IMG/VR virus record: IMGVR_UViG_2563366959_000014 | Reading direction: 5' to 3' (one strand) | Length of the DNA: 14,999 nucleotides | Source of the DNA: a virus | Lineage: Duplodnaviria > Heunggongvirae > Uroviricota > Caudoviricetes | In this document: positions 1-14,999 of the stretch, in pieces | How positions within the stretch are numbered: position 1 is the stretch's first letter | Layout of the letters: each line of letters opens with the position of its first letter | Notes under the pieces: generated by a model | Seen by the model: the letters and a program-made list of their open reading frames with translations, nothing else | Databases searched by the model: none | What the model was told of the DNA's origin: nothing | Program-made: the position numbers and the translations under genes

Positions 1-165
1 ATGGCAAAGCCGATCATCACGCTCAATGGCCTAAAAATCGTCATTATGTTGGGAATGCTGGTCATTATTCTCTGCGGTATCCGTTTTGCCGCCGAGATCA
101 TCGTGCCGTTTATTCTCGCATTATTTATTGCTGTTATATATAACTTATTTCACTTAACGCATTGA
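1..165 (+). pseudogene. tqsA: 5' fragment of an AI-2E family membrane transporter (TqsA-like); after codon 46 the frame runs into unrelated AT-rich sequence and stops at codon 55
   Basis: Translation [45 protein letters not shown] matches my recollection of the E. coli TqsA/YdgG N-terminus; the following IYNLFHLTH* does not. The ORF is far too short for a transporter. Identity is recalled, not searched. Confidence 0.45.
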
Positions 166-251
166 TTTAATTAAATAATTTACACCACAAAAAGTGCCAA
201 AAATCGCAAAATGACTACACCAGTGACTACACCGTTCGGTGCACTGTATGA

Positions 252-277: not shown

Positions 278-596
278 AAATATAAAGGCGGGTCATCTTT
301 CCAGGGGGAAGCGCACCAATTCATGAGGGGCGTTAATGTCGATATGGGGATCCCCACCTACCGGAATTTTTGCCAGGTTAAATGTTAATCAGGCTGGTGG
401 GCTTTACATACCCTTGATCACGGTAATGATGATTCAGGTGCGTACCTTTTCCCCAGTGGGGTAAAAGCTCCAACCGTAACGATGTTCGTTGTGGTTGCCT
501 TGATGGTCTGCGTGGTCATTATGACCATTCAGAATTTGAAGGGTGATGTTTCCGATCTCCTCAAATTGAGGTTGCCGGAAATATCAACGGGTTAGG

Positions 597-620
597 CCAG
601 AGTGCAAATTTGCACTCTGG
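597..620. repeat. 24-bp perfect palindrome CCAGAGTGCAAATTTGCACTCTGG
   Basis: Read directly; the reverse complement is identical. No flanking T-run on either strand, so not a classical terminator. Confidence 0.6.
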
Positions 621-642
621 AACAATTCCAACCAGTAATCAG

Positions 643-670
643 CGCAATTTTGCGCTTTGCTTTAAGTTCA
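643..670. repeat. 28-bp direct repeat, copy 1 (CGCAATTTTGCGCTTTGCTTTAAGTTCA)
   Basis: Identical 28-mer recurs at 862-889; each copy lies 14-22 bp downstream of a perfect palindrome. Confidence 0.6.
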
Positions 671-678
671 GCGAGTAA

Positions 679-702
679 CCGAAGGCGGAATTCCGCCCTC
701 GG
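679..702. repeat. GC-rich near-palindrome CCGAAGGCGGAATTCCGCCCTCGG (perfect core GGCGGAATTCCGCC)
   Basis: Read directly; 14-bp perfect palindromic core at 684-697, extended arms with one mismatch. Confidence 0.5.
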
Positions 703-828
703 TACTCACATATGAGAAACGATATTTCTTCCACCGATACCCTTTATTTGGGTATCGCGAGTAAGCCCCAAAATCTGGGTGTTACTCTTACTACCCAAAC
801 TACGGGTATTTTCCGTAATTTCATGGTC

Positions 829-848
829 GAGTTGCAGATCTGCAACTC
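829..848. repeat. 20-bp perfect palindrome GAGTTGCAGATCTGCAACTC
   Basis: Read directly; the reverse complement is identical. Confidence 0.6.
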
Positions 849-861
849 ACCCACCAGCCAA

Positions 862-889
862 CGCAATTTTGCGCTTTGCTTTAAGTTCA
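862..889. repeat. 28-bp direct repeat, copy 2
   Basis: Exact match to 643-670; ends 6 bp before the stop of the 93-aa minus-strand gene. Confidence 0.6.
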
Positions 890-894
890 ACCAG

Positions 895-1176
895 TTACCG
901 CCGTAACCGCTCCGGCTTCTTCCAGTGGTACGTAATTTTTGCTTTTTCCCTGTACGTCTGCACGCGGCGACGGTAGGCCAGCATTTCAAGAACGCGGATC
1001 CGTATGTTGCGCATATCCACATCATTAAGCTGGATACCATCACGGCGCATCACCTCAGCAACAACACGCGCATAATTTTCGGCGGTCACGCTGTCCGGCT
1101 GCGTGGCCTGTTCGTCATGCTGCTGGCTGATTCCAGAGACGCGGCGGATTAATCGCAGTATTTCGGCTTCTGTCAT
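895..1176 (-). CDS. Hypothetical protein (93 aa), last gene of the packaging operon
   Basis: ATG at 1176 with GAGGT Shine-Dalgarno, about 14 bp after the TerL stop, same strand. No family recognised. Confidence 0.5.
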   Translation of the reverse strand: MTEAEILRLIRRVSGISQQHDEQATQPDSVTAENYARVVAEVMRRDGIQLNDVDMRNIRIRVLEMLAYRRRVQTYREKAKITYHWKKPERLRR

Positions 1177-1189
1177 GCTGCTGACCTCA

Positions 1190-2851
1190 TTACACCCCGC
1201 TAAATTCTTCCAGTTTCTGGCGGTGGCTGTCGCTTATATCAAAAGCAAAATCCTCATGCTCTGCCTGGAATGTACCAAACGCCATCAGCGCCGCTACGCT
1301 CGGGTCTATCTTGTTCGGTGATTTTTTCTTGTTCGGCTTGATATTGGCGTTCGCGTCACTCTGCATCACGACGTTACTCATCGACCAGGACAACACCGGA
1401 TCGCCACGATGCACAATCACCCTGCGGTTAACAAAAACTTCGAACGATTTCGCCGCCGGACTGAATCTGAGGTAGGTTTGCGGGAACGGCTCCACCTCAA
1501 AACCAGCCCCCTGTAATTGCGTTCTCAGGTGCGTGGCGTTCCACGTATCAAAGCCCACCAGCCTGATATTAAATTTCTCCGCATCCTGCATGATGTCATC
1601 TCTGATCCGGTCGTAATCAATGCAGTCACCTGGCGTTGTGCGTATCCAGCCCGCTTTAGCCCACTGGCGATAGACAGCGCGGTTTTTATTGGCGGGGTTC
1701 TGTAGCTGGAACTCCGGCAGATAATGACGGGAAATCAGCATAATGGTTTTACCAACCGGAAAGGCATAGCACACGCTGGAAATATCGCTGGTTGATGATA
1801 AGTCCAGCCCCGCGTAACACTCCTGCCCGTGTAAATCTTCCTCCGTGAACGTTCCGGCACACTCAGCCCATGCGCCGTAACCCATCCACGGGGTAGCCCC
1901 CTGGCACCAGATATTAAATCGCTTTGTCATCATCTCCACCCATTGCGACGGAATACCCCGCGCTTTCTGGATGGTTGAGGCCAGTTTTTCACGATCCACG
2001 GAAACATCGATGTTAGGGTTAGCCTTTATCCACATCGCCGGATCATCAACCTCGTTTTCGTCGTCCAGCTCGTAAATCAGCACAAAAATTGAATCGTTGA
2101 CCTCTTCGCCGTCCAGGATCTGGCAGCAATAATCATAGTGCTGTTTACAGGCTGAAACGACGTTACTGCCCGATGTGGTAATGGCAAATAACAGCCCTTC
2201 GGGACGTGCGCCCATCCCCAGCTCAAGCGCGGAATAAACGCCGTTATCGGGGTGTAGGTGGTATTCGTCCACGATGGAAAGGCTTGGGTTTGTGCCCTCG
2301 ATGGTTGCCGCTTTTGCTGCCAGCGGCTTTAACAGGCTGTTGCTTTTCGGGTGCATCACCTTGTGGGCCTGAATATTCACCCGCCTGCGTAACGGTCGGG
2401 ATAAAAGGCACATCTGACGCGCATCATCAAAAACGATCCGCGCCTGGTCACGGCTCACCGCTGCGGTGTAGATATCCTGCTGCCCGTTCTCCATAATCAG
2501 AAACCAGTTAGCCAGAATCGCGGCGGTCGTGGATTTCGCATTTTTGCGCGGCACTTCGATAAAGGCGCTCGTGTATTTGCGCCGTCCGGTGGCCTTAACC
2601 TTAAAGCCGAGGATGCACGCAAAGGCGAACTGCTGCCACGGCTCCAGCTCAATGGGTCTGCCACGCATCGGCCCTTTTACGTGCGGGCACACCCTGGAAA
2701 AGGCAATAAACCGCTCCACGACCTCACGATCGAACGTATAAAGGGGGTTTTTAAGGTCAGAAAAGTACCGTTTAACGGCCTGTTTCAGCCGTTTACAGGC
2801 CGGAATTTTGCCCGTTTTTACGTCTTCTGCGTACTTATTCCAGGCGGTCAA
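1190..2851 (-). CDS. Terminase large subunit (TerL)
   Basis: 553 aa with N-terminal ATPase region and C-terminal nuclease-like region typical of HK97-type large terminases. Starts with TTG (AGAGGA Shine-Dalgarno upstream), overlapping the TerS 3' end by 17 nt. Confidence 0.9.
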   Translation of the reverse strand: MTAWNKYAEDVKTGKIPACKRLKQAVKRYFSDLKNPLYTFDREVVERFIAFSRVCPHVKGPMRGRPIELEPWQQFAFACILGFKVKATGRRKYTSAFIEVPRKNAKSTTAAILANWFLIMENGQQDIYTAAVSRDQARIVFDDARQMCLLSRPLRRRVNIQAHKVMHPKSNSLLKPLAAKAATIEGTNPSLSIVDEYHLHPDNGVYSALELGMGARPEGLLFAITTSGSNVVSACKQHYDYCCQILDGEEVNDSIFVLIYELDDENEVDDPAMWIKANPNIDVSVDREKLASTIQKARGIPSQWVEMMTKRFNIWCQGATPWMGYGAWAECAGTFTEEDLHGQECYAGLDLSSTSDISSVCYAFPVGKTIMLISRHYLPEFQLQNPANKNRAVYRQWAKAGWIRTTPGDCIDYDRIRDDIMQDAEKFNIRLVGFDTWNATHLRTQLQGAGFEVEPFPQTYLRFSPAAKSFEVFVNRRVIVHRGDPVLSWSMSNVVMQSDANANIKPNKKKSPNKIDPSVAALMAFGTFQAEHEDFAFDISDSHRQKLEEFSGV

Positions 2852-6344: not shown

Positions 6345-6364
6345 AAGGGGCTTTTTAGCCCCTT
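6345..6364 (-). terminator. Stem-loop between capsid and protease genes (possible partial terminator or attenuator)
   Basis: AAGGGGC / GCCCCTT 7-bp stem with a 6-nt loop, 10 nt after the capsid stop, followed on the minus strand by a moderately U-rich stretch. Confidence 0.35.
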
Positions 6365-9466: not shown

Positions 9467-9700
9467 AACCCTTCACCTGTTCACCTTTTGATATTTTATC
9501 TTTTAATTCATAATGTTAAGGGGTGAACAGTTTCACAAAAACTATTCACCAACTGTTCACCACTGTTCACCCTTGAAGCTCAATAAACAATCAAAAAGGT
9601 GAACAGTGAATAGTTTGGTGAACAGTTCATAAATAACTGTTCACCCTATAATATACTGATATAAAAGATATTTATGACAGGGTGAACAGTGGTGAACAGT
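9467..9700. repeat. Replication origin: about ten GGTGAACAG / CTGTTCACC iterons in both orientations within an AT-rich segment
   Basis: Iteron copies at 9478-9485, 9522-9530, 9543-9550, 9553-9561, 9563-9571, 9598-9606, 9617-9625, 9638-9646, 9681-9689 and 9691-9699; the segment lies directly 3' of the primase gene. Confidence 0.75.
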
Positions 9701-9712
9701 TATTCCATAAGT

Positions 9713-11530
9713 TTAATTTTTGCTATCGTCATTAGTGACCGATACACATGACGGCATCCAGTCTTCTGATTCCTCCGTCAGTGTCACGTTTGAACGCAAA
9801 CCGTGCTTCGTTTTCCGTTTCATATACTCCCTGCCATATTCCGCCATTGCCCCCGGCATATCTTTACCGAAGCGCGTCAGTGTTACAGGTTTACCAAACC
9901 CATGTGCCTTCATATAAGCCAGATAGGCATGATAGAGATACCTGCGCGGGCTGAATGGCACAATTTCAGCATTACCCACTAACAGGCCATCACACATTAC
10001 CGACGCCATGAGATAGCCGCAGAAGTCCACCAGCGAATCACCTTCACGCTTTATCGCGAGTGCTTCTTCTGATTTCTGCTGCTCATATAAAAGGCGTCTG
10101 GCTTCGTCCTGGTCAGCAAACCGTGTAAGCAGATGACGAATCACTACCGCCAGCTCACCTTCTATTTTTTCCGCCAGCATTGAATCGCGTTCGTTCTCCG
10201 GTACAACTTCCGAAAAATTGAATATCACCCGACGGCGCGAGATCCCCCCGCTGCGGTCACTGAATGACATGGCGTTATTGTTAACCGCCAGCACTACTGC
10301 CGGAATACGCGTTGAGTAGGGGGCTTTGTGTTTCGGGTCAATTGCCACCTTGTCACCGCCTGTAATGGCCTTAATTCCTGCCCCATCACCAGCGTAGCGG
10401 GTCATATCCGGCATGATAATCAGCGAAAAGCCAACCACTAACGCGCGTTCCCTTGCATCTTCCAGCGCCTTCATGCTTGCCGATACTGTGTTGGCCTTAC
10501 CCGCCAGCATGGTGCAAATCTCCGCCATCACGCTTTTACCACTTCCCCCTGGACCTGTTACCTCAATGAATAACTGCCAGTCGTACCGGTTCGCCAGCAC
10601 CATGAATAATGCAGCCAGTACGCGATCCGCCTTGCGGTCATTCTCAGCCACCGAACGGCGTAACCACTTCCAGAAATTCGGCGCATGTGTTGCCAGCGTT
10701 TCTCCCTCTGCTGGTGGGCTGAAAGGTAATTCACTGGCAATTAACAACCAGTCGTTTTTGTTATGCTCCCGAAAATCGCCTGTCCGGGTATCAAAAACAC
10801 CGTTACTGAATCCAATCAGGTTACGGGCTGTATTCCCCATTACAGGCAAACTTAACTTCATGGTATCGACCGCCGATTTAATGGCGTTCTGCGAATAGCT
10901 GATCTCCGCATCAATGAAAATCTGTGCCATAGCTCGCTGTAATTCTTTATCCTGTACTGGCTCCCATACAACGCCGTTGTAATAGTGAACAGTGTCAGAG
11001 TCAGCATGAATCGCCAGTTCACCGCCATAATGTGCCAGGAGAACTTCGCCGCGTTGACTTGCTCCCATCTGGTTAAGCGCCAGTGATGAAGCGTTATCGT
11101 CTTTTACCCGCTCTTTTTTCTTTACAGGCAGTTCAACTACCTTTTTCTTTTCCGCCTGCTCTGCCCGTTCACGTTCCAGATATTCGCGCCAGTTCTCCCG
11201 TTTCTGGCTGTGCATTCCTTCAGGGTAATAATCAGCATCCCTGACACCTGCCGCTGCCAGTTTCTGCCCGATGGTATTAACAAGCCCCGGACGCAATAAC
11301 CCCGCCTGGTAGAGACGCACGCGATAGCGTCCGTCCGGTACGATTTGCAGGTTGTCCAGTTCGGCAAGTTGTTGCTCTCCAAGCCAGACAGGAGGCACGC
11401 TGTCGCCAGCCAGTCGCCCGTCCTGTTCCTGCCACTGCTTCGCATGTGCCCACGCATCACTACCCGCAAAAATGATGACTTCCGTCATTTTGTCACGTGG
11501 CTGGTGTTTTAAATTTGGCGCTTTTTTCAT
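9713..11530 (-). CDS. Replication primase/NTPase, P4-alpha C-terminal-domain family
   Basis: 605 aa from the ATG at 11530 (MKKAPNL), which overlaps the upstream stop (ATGA) and follows a GGAGAG Shine-Dalgarno. Walker A motif GPGGSGKS and a Walker B-like hydrophobic stretch; followed by the iteron origin. Confidence 0.85.
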   Translation of the reverse strand: MKKAPNLKHQPRDKMTEVIIFAGSDAWAHAKQWQEQDGRLAGDSVPPVWLGEQQLAELDNLQIVPDGRYRVRLYQAGLLRPGLVNTIGQKLAAAGVRDADYYPEGMHSQKRENWREYLERERAEQAEKKKVVELPVKKKERVKDDNASSLALNQMGASQRGEVLLAHYGGELAIHADSDTVHYYNGVVWEPVQDKELQRAMAQIFIDAEISYSQNAIKSAVDTMKLSLPVMGNTARNLIGFSNGVFDTRTGDFREHNKNDWLLIASELPFSPPAEGETLATHAPNFWKWLRRSVAENDRKADRVLAALFMVLANRYDWQLFIEVTGPGGSGKSVMAEICTMLAGKANTVSASMKALEDARERALVVGFSLIIMPDMTRYAGDGAGIKAITGGDKVAIDPKHKAPYSTRIPAVVLAVNNNAMSFSDRSGGISRRRVIFNFSEVVPENERDSMLAEKIEGELAVVIRHLLTRFADQDEARRLLYEQQKSEEALAIKREGDSLVDFCGYLMASVMCDGLLVGNAEIVPFSPRRYLYHAYLAYMKAHGFGKPVTLTRFGKDMPGAMAEYGREYMKRKTKHGLRSNVTLTEESEDWMPSCVSVTNDDSKN

Positions 11531-13417: not shown

Positions 13418-13568
13418 TATTGCCCCCTTTCGTTTCTTAAAGAGTCATCAGGTGTCTTATTGTGTCGTATTGTTCCCGCTAGAGTGATGAATGGCAAATG
13501 TTGGTGGCGGATGGTTTACAGAAAGAGGAATAATCAGGATAAAATCATTTAAATTCATGTTAATACAA

Positions 13569-13599
13569 AGGCATAAAATCTCGTTTTATGCCTTTTTTC
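13569..13599. terminator. Hairpin with flanking A/T runs, likely terminator for the integrase transcript
   Basis: AGGCATAAAA / TTTTATGCCT stem with a 5-nt loop; TTTTTT follows on the plus strand and a U-rich stretch follows on the minus strand. Confidence 0.45.
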
Positions 13600-13689
13600 T
13601 CACGCTTTAAAGCGTGATTCGCTAATGTATAAAAAACCAGTAATATAATAAAAATCAGCGACTTATAAATCTGTATGCTTTTTCGCCTC

Positions 13690-13740: not shown

Positions 13741-13781
13741 CGCATATCCAGTATGCGCATACTGAAAAAACCCGAAAAAAA

Positions 13782-14999
13782 TTATTTTCTTCTGGCTACG
13801 GGTAGCGTGGTTACGTTTTCATGTGCTCCCGCCAGTATCCCTAACCGCTCCGTCCACATATCCAGCGCATCACGTTTCGCATCCAGATAACGGGAATGGT
13901 TATAGACTCGTTGCATCCCTGGCATCTGATGACCTGTAAGCTGCTCCACGACGTGAGGATCCGCGCCTAAATCGTTCAGCATCGTTGTAAAGGTGCGCCG
14001 GATGTCATGCAGTGACCATTGAGGGTGTTTTAGCCTCCTGTGCGCTAATCTGCCGTACTGCGATACGCTGGCCTCCTGTTTCACTTCCCCCAGCAATAAG
14101 CCCGTGTGCCTGTTCTGCTCCACCAGCTTCATGACAAACGGCAGGATCGCTTCCGGTATGGGCCGGAATATTGCGACCTTCGTTTTGCTGTGCTCCTTCG
14201 GAACGGTCCATAGCATTTCCGTAAAATCCCACTCCCCGATCTCCGATAACCTCAGTTCTACCGTTCTGGCACCGAAGACAATCAGGAGGCGGATTAACGC
14301 GACGTAGTAAGGGGAAAATATTTTTTTATCCAGTGCCTGCAATAACTCGCCAAGTTCTTTGGTGCTTAAGACACGCTCGCTTATATCCGGTTTTTTCCCA
14401 ACGTCCGCAACGTTCAGATCGTCCAGAACGTTGCTGATTGCATAGCGCCGCCTACGGCAGAACTTAAGCGCCTGTTTGCACGCCTGTAGCACGAATCCGG
14501 CAGTAACAGGCGTTCGCTTTGCCACCTGGTCAAAACAAGCCAGCCAGTGCCGTAGCTCGCATTTATCCAGCGGCATAGCACCAATGTGCTGTATTACGTG
14601 ATTATTAAGTCGCCTTTTCAGGGCGATATAATCCACGCGGTTTTCCTTTACGTAAGACTCAAGCCAGTAGGTAAGCGCATCGCCAACCGTTACGGGCTTT
14701 AACGCTTCCTGTACGGTGTAATTCATCTCATGACGTGGATTTTTCCCCTCAGCCAGCCATGCGCGACACTGTGCGGCTTTTTCCCTGGCTGCTTTCAGGC
14801 TCAGATCAGGATAACTTCCCAGCTTAATGCGTTCGGGTCGTGTCTCCCTTCCCGTTCCGGCCCTGTATGTGAAATACCATGTCAATTTCCCTGATGTTAA
14901 ATATTTCACGCTCAGGTTTCCGCCATCACTATAAAACGTGTTTTTCTCAGCTGGCTTACCATGAAGTTTCCTTAGCAATGTATCGCTCAGTTTGTTCAT
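13782..14999 (-). CDS. int: Tyrosine integrase, P4-type
   Basis: 405 aa; N-terminal arm-binding-like region (YSDGGNLSVKY...WYFTYR) and a C-terminal catalytic region with the conserved HDIRRT and a tyrosine near the C-terminus. ATG is the last three bases of the window. Confidence 0.9.
   Translation of the reverse strand: MNKLSDTLLRKLHGKPAEKNTFYSDGGNLSVKYLTSGKLTWYFTYRAGTGRETRPERIKLGSYPDLSLKAAREKAAQCRAWLAEGKNPRHEMNYTVQEALKPVTVGDALTYWLESYVKENRVDYIALKRRLNNHVIQHIGAMPLDKCELRHWLACFDQVAKRTPVTAGFVLQACKQALKFCRRRRYAISNVLDDLNVADVGKKPDISERVLSTKELGELLQALDKKIFSPYYVALIRLLIVFGARTVELRLSEIGEWDFTEMLWTVPKEHSKTKVAIFRPIPEAILPFVMKLVEQNRHTGLLLGEVKQEASVSQYGRLAHRRLKHPQWSLHDIRRTFTTMLNDLGADPHVVEQLTGHQMPGMQRVYNHSRYLDAKRDALDMWTERLGILAGAHENVTTLPVARRK

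Follow-up and report, generated by a model that had tools for sequence, protein, structure and literature searches.

IMG/VR record IMGVR_UViG_2563366959_000014 (14,999 nucleotides, hereafter the window) is a phage satellite of the capsid-forming class of phage-inducible chromosomal islands (PICIs), integrated in the tqsA gene. At one end of this island a non-coding tail of 760 bp extends from the last gene, a 93-aa open reading frame (ORF93), to the left attachment site (attL), and within it lie palindromes and a repeated 28-bp sequence (28-mer) that a sequence-only reading had described as a module of palindrome plus 28-mer in two copies. By comparison with related islands, we found that PICI tails are mosaics of satellite-specific units of about 48 bp, placed head-to-tail and all pointing in the same direction, in which a short palindrome is combined with a box built around the consensus of integration host factor (IHF). 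The anatomy of this array is solid and widespread, and the copies in the window are degenerate members in a rare arrangement. As for function, our preferred but tentative reading is a cis-acting IHF/palindrome DNA element that would form a compact nucleoprotein buffer and evolve by unequal recombination. Coordinates are collected in Table 1.

We compared 57 distinct tails, representing 80 IMG/VR loci found through ORF93 together with Escherichia coli loci. Nearly all are from Escherichia or Shigella; they are related sequences, and the counts below are not independent events. On the plus strand of the window, a unit consists of a short palindrome, a spacer of 8 to 10 nt and the box ATATCA(A/G)C-NN-GTTA, which is followed by CCG or GGC. 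The 13-bp core of the box is the IHF consensus WATCARNNNNTTR, a string that serves as such in PMC8942017 and PMC10380432. Across the 57 tails this consensus occurs 102 times in the plus orientation of the window and 34 times in the opposite one, with about 2.2 per strand expected. A hidden Markov model of the box identified 160 boxes on the plus strand and 9 on the minus strand. Tails carry from zero to seven boxes, with at least one in 46 of the 57, and the most frequent box-to-box spacing is 48 bp. A perfect consensus was found in 37 of 57 distinct boxes, a share inflated by the seeding of the model with consensus-matching boxes. Boxes differ from one another mainly at R and at the middle N positions of the consensus.

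The palindrome is held at a set distance from the box and varies in sequence. A pairing-symmetry scan that made no assumption of a hairpin gave a single peak, centered 16.5 to 17.5 nt upstream of the box. With the dyad placed at about 17 bp, at least four of five Watson-Crick pairs are formed in 64 of 76 distinct units and all five in 46, compared with 0 to 13 units at control centers. The two inner pairs are nearly constant (CA...TG, with the core CA-N3/4-TG), three to four types of base pair are found at each of pairs 3 and 5, and twelve different 5-nt arms are present among the unit palindromes. The unit that abuts ORF93 provides an orthologous position at which the palindrome reads CGCAATTTTGCG, CCCATTTTGGG or GTGCATTTTTGCAC in different islands with the flanking sequence unchanged, and in other islands the box at this position is canonical. 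This exchange of one palindrome for another is a compensatory change.

In the window itself, the 24-bp, 20-bp and GC-rich palindromes and the identical 28-mer (CGCAATTTTGCGCTTTGCTTTAAGTTCA) are all present at or near the places where the sequence-only reading had put them. The 28-mer occurs exactly twice, 22 and 13 bp from the respective long palindromes, and 200 shuffles gave 0.00 such matches even with three mismatches permitted. However, the natural unit differs from the proposed module. The direct repeat extends beyond the 28-mer to 53 nt with 83% identity between copies, and the 28-mer is itself composed of the small palindrome AGCGCAATTTTGCGCT, a spacer and the first bases of a degenerate box, making it one variant of the unit. 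This variant, recognized by the spacer CTTTGCTTTAAG, is a recurrent subclass found in 26 of the 57 tails when up to four substitutions are permitted. The second copy of its box is matched by the box model with E = 0.036 and the first copy is missed by it; the canonical unit immediately to the left of the 24-bp palindrome is matched by the same nhmmer model with E = 1.6e-7. In GTTCAACCAGTTA, the first box of the tail, the TTA corresponds to the stop codon of ORF93 read on the complementary strand. Both long palindromes share their inner core with the unit palindromes, and related long palindromes stand at the same relative place in other tails (for the 24-bp palindrome, in L083 and L038); the two are longer relatives of the unit palindrome family. 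The region from 548 to 905 is rich in dyads generally, with six perfect stems of at least 6 bp (0.52 ± 0.77 in shuffles); of the eight stems in the 15-kb window that reach 8 bp or more, three are located here.

The segment between the two 28-mer units, which we call module M, is the most frequently recovered part of the region. Parts of 590-900, mostly module M, are found in 756 of 5,426 E. coli genomes, and the complete layout in 23 of them; the two-copy design is thus a rare variant of the array and is not conserved. In other tails module M is accompanied by one flanking unit of the 28-mer type or by a canonical unit. The duplication in the window therefore represents two neighboring array members in a lineage-specific configuration, for which unequal recombination would be the most economical account. 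We also considered that module M, alone or together with the units on either side, is the gene of a structured small RNA, as the sequence-only reading had proposed for the repeats. Its high identity across hundreds of genomes is in keeping with such a gene, as are its several stable hairpins, two of which (792-808 and the hairpin CTACGG...CCGTAG) are mutually exclusive, and weak sub-threshold Rfam matches over 635-748. Those matches score 16 to 18 bits against gathering scores of 56 to 70, no promoter-like site lies in the region (the only one is at 403-430), many tails have no module M, and variation within it is too low for covariation, with two pairs of the 735-757 hairpin broken and uncompensated in L214. 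In two further islands (L212 and L213), a 9-nt deletion turns CTACGG...CCGTAG into the loop-less palindrome CTACGCGTAG. The Rfam 15 search of the whole window gave no match at gathering thresholds, a permissive scan of 100-1250 gave best sub-threshold scores of 16 to 18 bits against cut-offs of 33 to 70, and no tRNA or tmRNA was found. A small RNA gene is accordingly improbable here.

These observations also bear on whether the array does anything for the island. The repeats could be recombination debris or a self-propagating mini-repeat in a selection-free region, conserved through recent spread and through palindrome-generating mutation such as template switching. The highly mosaic arrangement of tails would suit this explanation, and so would the copy number that ranges down to zero (11 of 57 tails are free of units), the restriction of the exact layout to so few genomes, the uncompensated stem changes in some copies, as in module M of L214, and the 9-nt deletion, whose loop-less product is expected of hairpin-mediated slippage. 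Debris would not be expected to keep a fixed dyad-to-box distance in 64 of 76 distinct units, to replace a palindrome in a compensatory manner at an orthologous site, to confine box variation to the N and R positions of the IHF consensus, to hold a strictly one-way orientation (160 versus 9) or to be restricted to a single location in two different PICI classes. On this balance, we regard an inert or selfish array as rather unlikely.

A second explanation places the function in RNA. The units could act as weak factor-independent terminators on the plus strand, shielding the late genes of the island against antisense read-in from host promoters, or as stem-loops in the 3' untranslated region on the minus strand that stabilize the late-operon mRNA, with the IHF-like box being simply conserved tail sequence. 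The whole region folds more stably than shuffled sequence on both strands (z = -9.1 on plus and -9.8 on minus), the host gene at each of three integration sites (tqsA, phoQ and fis) reads into the tail, and two to four T residues follow the palindrome in most units. Terminator-like calls within 1-1300 lie on the plus strand alone, at 641-656 and 792-808. The first of these is the hairpin AGCGCAATTTTGCGCT of the 28-mer followed by TTGCTTTAAG, a terminator-like element that had been overlooked in the sequence-only reading; the latter was correct that neither the 24-bp nor the 20-bp palindrome is followed by a U-tail, whichever strand is read. In contrast to intrinsic terminators, the stem of this element is weak, its U-tract is interrupted, the second copy is not called, and the canonical units have no conserved U-tract. 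The two copies of the 28-mer hairpin fold at -11.7 and -6.5 kcal/mol (z = -1.3 and -0.15). The 24-bp palindrome is a stronger RNA hairpin at -18 kcal/mol (z = -5.6). The unit hairpins as a class are weak, at -6.5 to -12 kcal/mol in 47-nt windows, with z-scores near zero (+0.3 to -1.6). The U-tracts are short and lack conservation at orthologous units, as where CCCATTTTGGG precedes GCTGTCGG; the terminator scan returned 2 matches where 1.2 were expected, and no Rfam family was matched. Mismatches in the stems show no asymmetry between G.U (G.T in DNA) and A.C, at 19:19, and favor neither transcript strand, and conservation and variation along the box run parallel to the IHF consensus. A function at the RNA level only is therefore doubtful in our judgment, though on a par with the inert array.

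We favor an element that acts as DNA because box conservation tracks the IHF consensus and the palindrome is kept at a fixed helical distance from the box, and because the unit hairpins are thermodynamically ordinary as RNA with mismatches balanced between strands. In this model, IHF would bend the DNA at canonical boxes, and the neighboring palindromes would be bound by a dimeric protein or extruded. Together they would package the segment between the late operon and attL into a compact nucleoprotein buffer. The array could grow, shrink and be shuffled through unequal recombination between units, which would also be the source of the duplication in the window. In the 28-mer variant, two positions of the IHF consensus have been lost and a U-rich tail acquired, so its role may be limited to weak termination of transcription that enters the island from the tqsA promoter. 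Binding sites for protein are thus the best supported part of the earlier proposal of recombination or packaging sites, with IHF-consensus boxes defining the family at the level of sequence. Several observations weigh against our reading. IHF binding is a prediction from the consensus match, and the inflated share of perfect boxes has to be kept in mind. Both boxes of the 28-mer units in the window carry two mismatches to the consensus (GTTCAA in place of WATCAA). The number of units varies from zero to seven and 11 of 57 tails have none, therefore the array is dispensable for the core life cycle. The ordinary folding of the unit hairpins and the 19:19 balance of mismatches also count here. 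Finally, homology breakpoints between tails are not enriched in boxes (0.37 versus 0.43 at random); they cluster 8 to 25 nt from boxes, at the variable palindromes.

At 99.5% identity, the window matches a stretch of E. coli CFSAN027343 (island L001), in which tqsA is split by a 15-kb element with annotated tqsA fragments on both sides. The genes of that element include an integrase, a primase, a major capsid protein, an HK97-type protease, a portal protein, an HNH endonuclease, a P27-family small terminase and a large terminase, the last gene being a 93-aa hypothetical one. This gene set matches the capsid-forming PICIs described for EcCIEDL933 (10.1101/2022.09.08.507074). Islands inserted at phoQ begin to align with the window at position 156. 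Because of the attachment (att) core at 129-137 and this homology from 156 to islands at other chromosomal sites, the island boundary is placed at about 137 and not at 895, and the suggestion that the repeats are host intergenic sequence beyond a boundary nearer 895 does not hold. ORF93 and the tail also form the end of Rpp-type PICIs, which have a different packaging module, at clpS/cspD, phoQ and a prophage portal gene, and of other capsid-forming PICIs at phoQ, thiM, fis and hpt.

This distribution weighs against the proposal that the repeats are packaging sites (cos/pac, for TerS or Rpp) or arm sites of an integrase or excisionase. IHF sites are a component of lambda cosB and attP, and the PICI boxes resemble these in having a perfect WATCARNNNNTTR box at a fixed distance from another recognition element in the terminal or packaging-proximal DNA of a mobile element; the region adjoins the packaging genes and lies about 460 to 760 bp from the att core. 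Unlike in lambda, up to seven copies stand in tandem, on the downstream side of the terminase genes and 400 to 760 bp away from the att core, and the array is common to islands with different integrases and terminases and is dispensable in some. In Rpp-type PICIs, cos is located directly upstream of rpp, about 100 bp from its start (PMC9026076). The tail is found in islands with terminase systems as unrelated as P27-type TerS/TerL/HNH and Rpp, it accompanies different integrases and att sites (tqsA, phoQ, clpS, thiM, fis, hpt and the prophage portal gene), and some tails have no unit at all. A complete arm, consisting of core, IHF site and arm repeats, is already present at 138-240. A cos or packaging site was rejected on position, the tail lying downstream of terL and ORF93 (cosN itself was not searched for), and an attP or attL arm was rejected since the repeats start 460 bp from the core and the units are common to islands with different att sites. 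We consider either role very improbable, and the packaging part of the earlier binding-site proposal was set aside with it.

The tail was confirmed to be non-coding, as had been claimed, its small ORFs being unconserved in their starts, frames and stops. Small plus-strand proteins were nevertheless considered, for example from 482-595 (37 aa, hydrophobic) or 712-906 (64 aa), given that ORFs remain open across several units in some tails and that the spacings 48, 54 and 42 bp can be divided by three. However, 13 of 30 short spacings cannot, the same palindromes are spanned by open frames on both strands, and there was no match to Pfam or PHROG. In L017 and L077 a premature TGA truncates ORF 482-595, and in L003 its start codon is missing; where L004 or L007 differs from the window in this ORF, every change is non-synonymous. 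The window and L007 are separated by a frameshift in the minus-strand ORF 418-528. No feature is annotated between the island end and ORF93 in any of the annotated regions inspected. Coding function can be given almost no weight. A type I toxin-antitoxin system was rejected as well, as the hydrophobic ORF 482-595 is not conserved and its C-terminus is swapped between tails.

Among known repeat systems, BIME-1/RIP (RIB) elements and REP clusters such as REP325 are the closest analogue in possible working mode, in that they combine short palindromic units and an IHF-consensus site into a non-coding mosaic. Like the PICI array, they form clusters of variable copy number downstream of genes and have no settled function. 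REP/BIME elements occupy hundreds of chromosomal sites, whereas the PICI array is present in 1 to 6 places per genome and missing from most E. coli genomes; REP/BIME units alternate in orientation, whereas PICI units run head-to-tail (160 versus 9); and the palindromes of the array, unlike those of REP/BIME, vary in sequence between units. The IHF site of BIME-1/RIP lies between palindromic units, and the putative counterpart in the PICI array is the box, with the consensus in the 37 distinct boxes given above and two mismatches in the 28-mer units of the window. The REP consensus (GCCKGATGCGRCGY...) was not found in the tail, and the whole window has a single match with two mismatches, at 14445-14458 inside int, with 0.91 expected. 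Identity with a host repeat or REP/BIME was rejected on this distribution and the failure to find the REP consensus. The repeats are thus neither a host repeat family nor absent from related islands, the two outcomes that the sequence-only reading had named as refuting it.

Integron attC arrays are closest in array logic. They share with the PICI array same-orientation sites, a short conserved box and a hairpin that is conserved in structure and variable in sequence; in both, the sites separate variable segments and copy number differs among relatives. B-type boxes, ending in GTTAGGC, fit the attC motif GTTRRRY, and A-type boxes (GTTACCG) do not. The segments between PICI sites are non-coding, unlike those of integron arrays, and no inverse core RYYYAAC was found upstream of the palindromes in the unit listing. 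The island integrase gave sub-threshold matches only, to generic tyrosine-recombinase models (best, PRK09692 with 49.9 bits against a cut-off of 434). Membership among integron attC sites was rejected as no IntI is adjacent and there are no inverse core sites. IS200/IS605 and REP-RAYT-type transposases require a specific hairpin; mobilization of this kind was set aside, although the box contains TCAA and TTAC, because the hairpins here vary. A CRISPR-like array was set aside because the conserved part is not the palindrome and there are no cas genes, and XerCD/dif-like sites because there is no similarity.

ORF93, which always directly precedes the tail, has no Pfam or NCBIfam match and belongs to a PHROG of unknown function. 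It is extremely diversified for its size, with homologues in 1,006 clusters at 90% identity; the 120 matches listed are all hypothetical or unnamed, and those listed are nearly all from Escherichia. The AlphaFold2 model, of moderate confidence, consists of three helices (predicted local distance difference test score, pLDDT, of 68.7), and Foldseek found no match to it in the PDB at E <= 0.001. The protein ends in an invariant basic C-terminus, KKPERLRR, and its last codons overlap the first tail box. In the EcCIEDL933 paper, mutation of "hypothetical gene 1792", which may or may not be ORF93, is reported to have severely cut transfer. A more speculative possibility, to which we attach little probability, is that PICI tails carry an undescribed satellite-specific site system. 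In this scheme, each site, a palindrome of conserved structure held 17 bp from an IHF box, would be recognized jointly by IHF and a satellite or helper protein. The sites would form an attC-like or centromere-like array whose nucleoprotein complex at the island end mediates modular exchange of tail cassettes and accessory genes between otherwise unrelated PICI classes; ORF93, always adjacent, basic and helical, would be one candidate for the protein.

Parts of the tail are present in 1,429 to 1,519 of 5,426 complete E. coli genomes, and the tail sequence is confined to 14 to 28% of E. coli genomes. At every E. coli locus inspected, the repeat adjoins the 93-aa ORF of a PICI. The array had no match among 50,697 INPHARED phage records, and a phage origin was rejected on this basis. 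The exact 28-mer is absent from 185,579 species-representative genomes, and the genome-contig search with ORF93 returned a single locus, in Shigella. A scan of IMG/VR with the box pattern gave mostly single matches at chance level, in addition to the known PICI tails. Literature searches on IHF with PICIs, on CP-933C small RNAs, and on hairpins, palindromes and non-coding regions of satellites turned up no account of the array, and it appears to be previously undescribed.

PICIs play a major part in carrying virulence and anti-phage genes in E. coli, and it is at their ends that cargo enters or leaves. An oriented IHF-box/palindrome array common to capsid-forming and Rpp-type PICIs, in about a quarter of complete E. 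coli genomes, would, if it is a functional element, constitute a new cis element of satellite biology. It could insulate the island from host transcription, organize a nucleoprotein architecture at its end or be the substrate on which cassettes are shuffled, and all these candidate roles can be tested directly in the existing EcCIEDL933 and EcCICFT073 systems. Even an inert array would serve as a convenient marker for PICI ends and as a clear case of mosaic palindromic-repeat evolution.

Table 1. Coordinates of the tail elements and neighboring genes in the window
Feature	Position	Strand	Remarks
att core/crossover region, TGCTGTTAT	129-137		Same 9-mer at the attL and attR junctions of L001; left boundary of the island, inside tqsA
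IHF consensus site of the attL arm	155-167	-	Next to the att core; consensus match
Integrase arm-type direct repeats, TGACTACACC twice	212-233	+	Pair recurs near attR of L001; variants in other islands
Canonical unit	559-594	+	Palindrome CCTCAAATTGAGG (559-571), 10-nt spacer, perfect IHF-consensus box TATCAACGGGTTA (582-594)
24-bp perfect palindrome, CCAGAGTGCAAATTTGCACTCTGG	597-620		Inner core GTGCA-AATT-TGCAC, same family as the unit hairpins
53-nt repeat, copy 1 (degenerate unit)	629-681	+	Palindrome AGCGCAATTTTGCGCT (641-656), 28-mer (643-670), degenerate box GTTCAGCGAGTAA (666-678)
Module M	672-861		Hairpin-rich 190-bp cassette between the two 28-mer units, 88-98% identity in other PICI tails; hairpins 735-757, 759-787 and 792-808, the GC-rich and 20-bp palindromes, and a minus-strand Chi octamer (851-858)
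GC-rich palindrome, ACCGAAGGCGGAATTCCGCCCTCGGT	678-703		
20-bp perfect palindrome, GAGTTGCAGATCTGCAACTC	829-848		Inner core TTGCA-GATC-TGCAA
53-nt repeat, copy 2 (terminal unit)	848-900	+	Palindrome CGCAATTTTGCG, 28-mer (862-889), degenerate box GTTCAACCAGTTA (885-897); downstream of module M
ORF93	895-1176	-	93 aa, last gene of the island; phrog_1561, E = 1.4e-56
terL	1190-2851		Tail lies downstream of terL and ORF93
Int	13782-14999	-	Far end of the island from the tail

Several further features of the tails were recorded. The att-proximal segment 240-547 is the most widely conserved among PICI tails. It holds additional palindromes, TGGGGATCCCCA at 345-356, TGGTCATTATGACCA at 513-527 and CCCCAGTGGGG near 451-461, as well as the only sigma-70-like site within 1-1300, at 403-430 on the plus strand, and some of its hairpins form a G.U wobble on the minus strand only. 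In eight islands (L007, L027, L029, L030, L033, L051, L055 and L077) a different module is present, in which GTGAC is repeated four times in direct orientation (for example ACCGTGACGGAGAGTGACAACCAGTGACACGCCGTGAC). It resembles an iteron or protein-binding array, and in some islands ORF93 is immediately followed by this module rather than by hairpin/IHF-box units. An IS3-family element is inserted directly after the first unit in L012, and in L038, L045, L046 and L067 two tail units are followed by a pair of divergent genes, one of them for a PerC-like regulator; the tail therefore also takes up insertions and cargo.

The window also contains 15 Chi octamers (GCTGGTGG) in 15 kb, with about 0.5 expected at random and about 3 at the average density of E. 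coli. They are located at 393, 4334, 6278, 8498 and 10710 on the plus strand and at 851, 1555, 4779, 5783, 8357, 8832, 9094, 10027, 12969 and 14120 on the minus strand. Two of them (393-400, plus; 851-858, minus) lie in the tail, and Chi or the Chi-like CCACCAG recurs in many PICI tails. Chi sites may shield the satellite DNA, in its linear or rolling-circle form, from RecBCD. A perfect inverted repeat of 18 nt carrying Chi (ATCAGGCTGGTGGGCTTT) has one arm at 388-405 in the conserved tail and the other at 1550-1567 inside terL, where it encodes IRLVGF. The similarity reaches about 28 of 34 nt, and the tail arm is conserved also in Rpp-type PICIs, which have no terL.

Outside the tail, other strong palindromes or hairpins with stems of 8 to 12 bp are found at 9617-9645, downstream of the primase gene (3' end at 9713), at 13567-13595, 13600-13617 and 13749-13764, all in the regulatory region beside int, and at 6345-6364. 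The last of these is terminator-like (AAGGGGCTTTTTAGCCCCTT) and stands at the junction of the 223-aa protease and 400-aa capsid ORFs, both on the minus strand.

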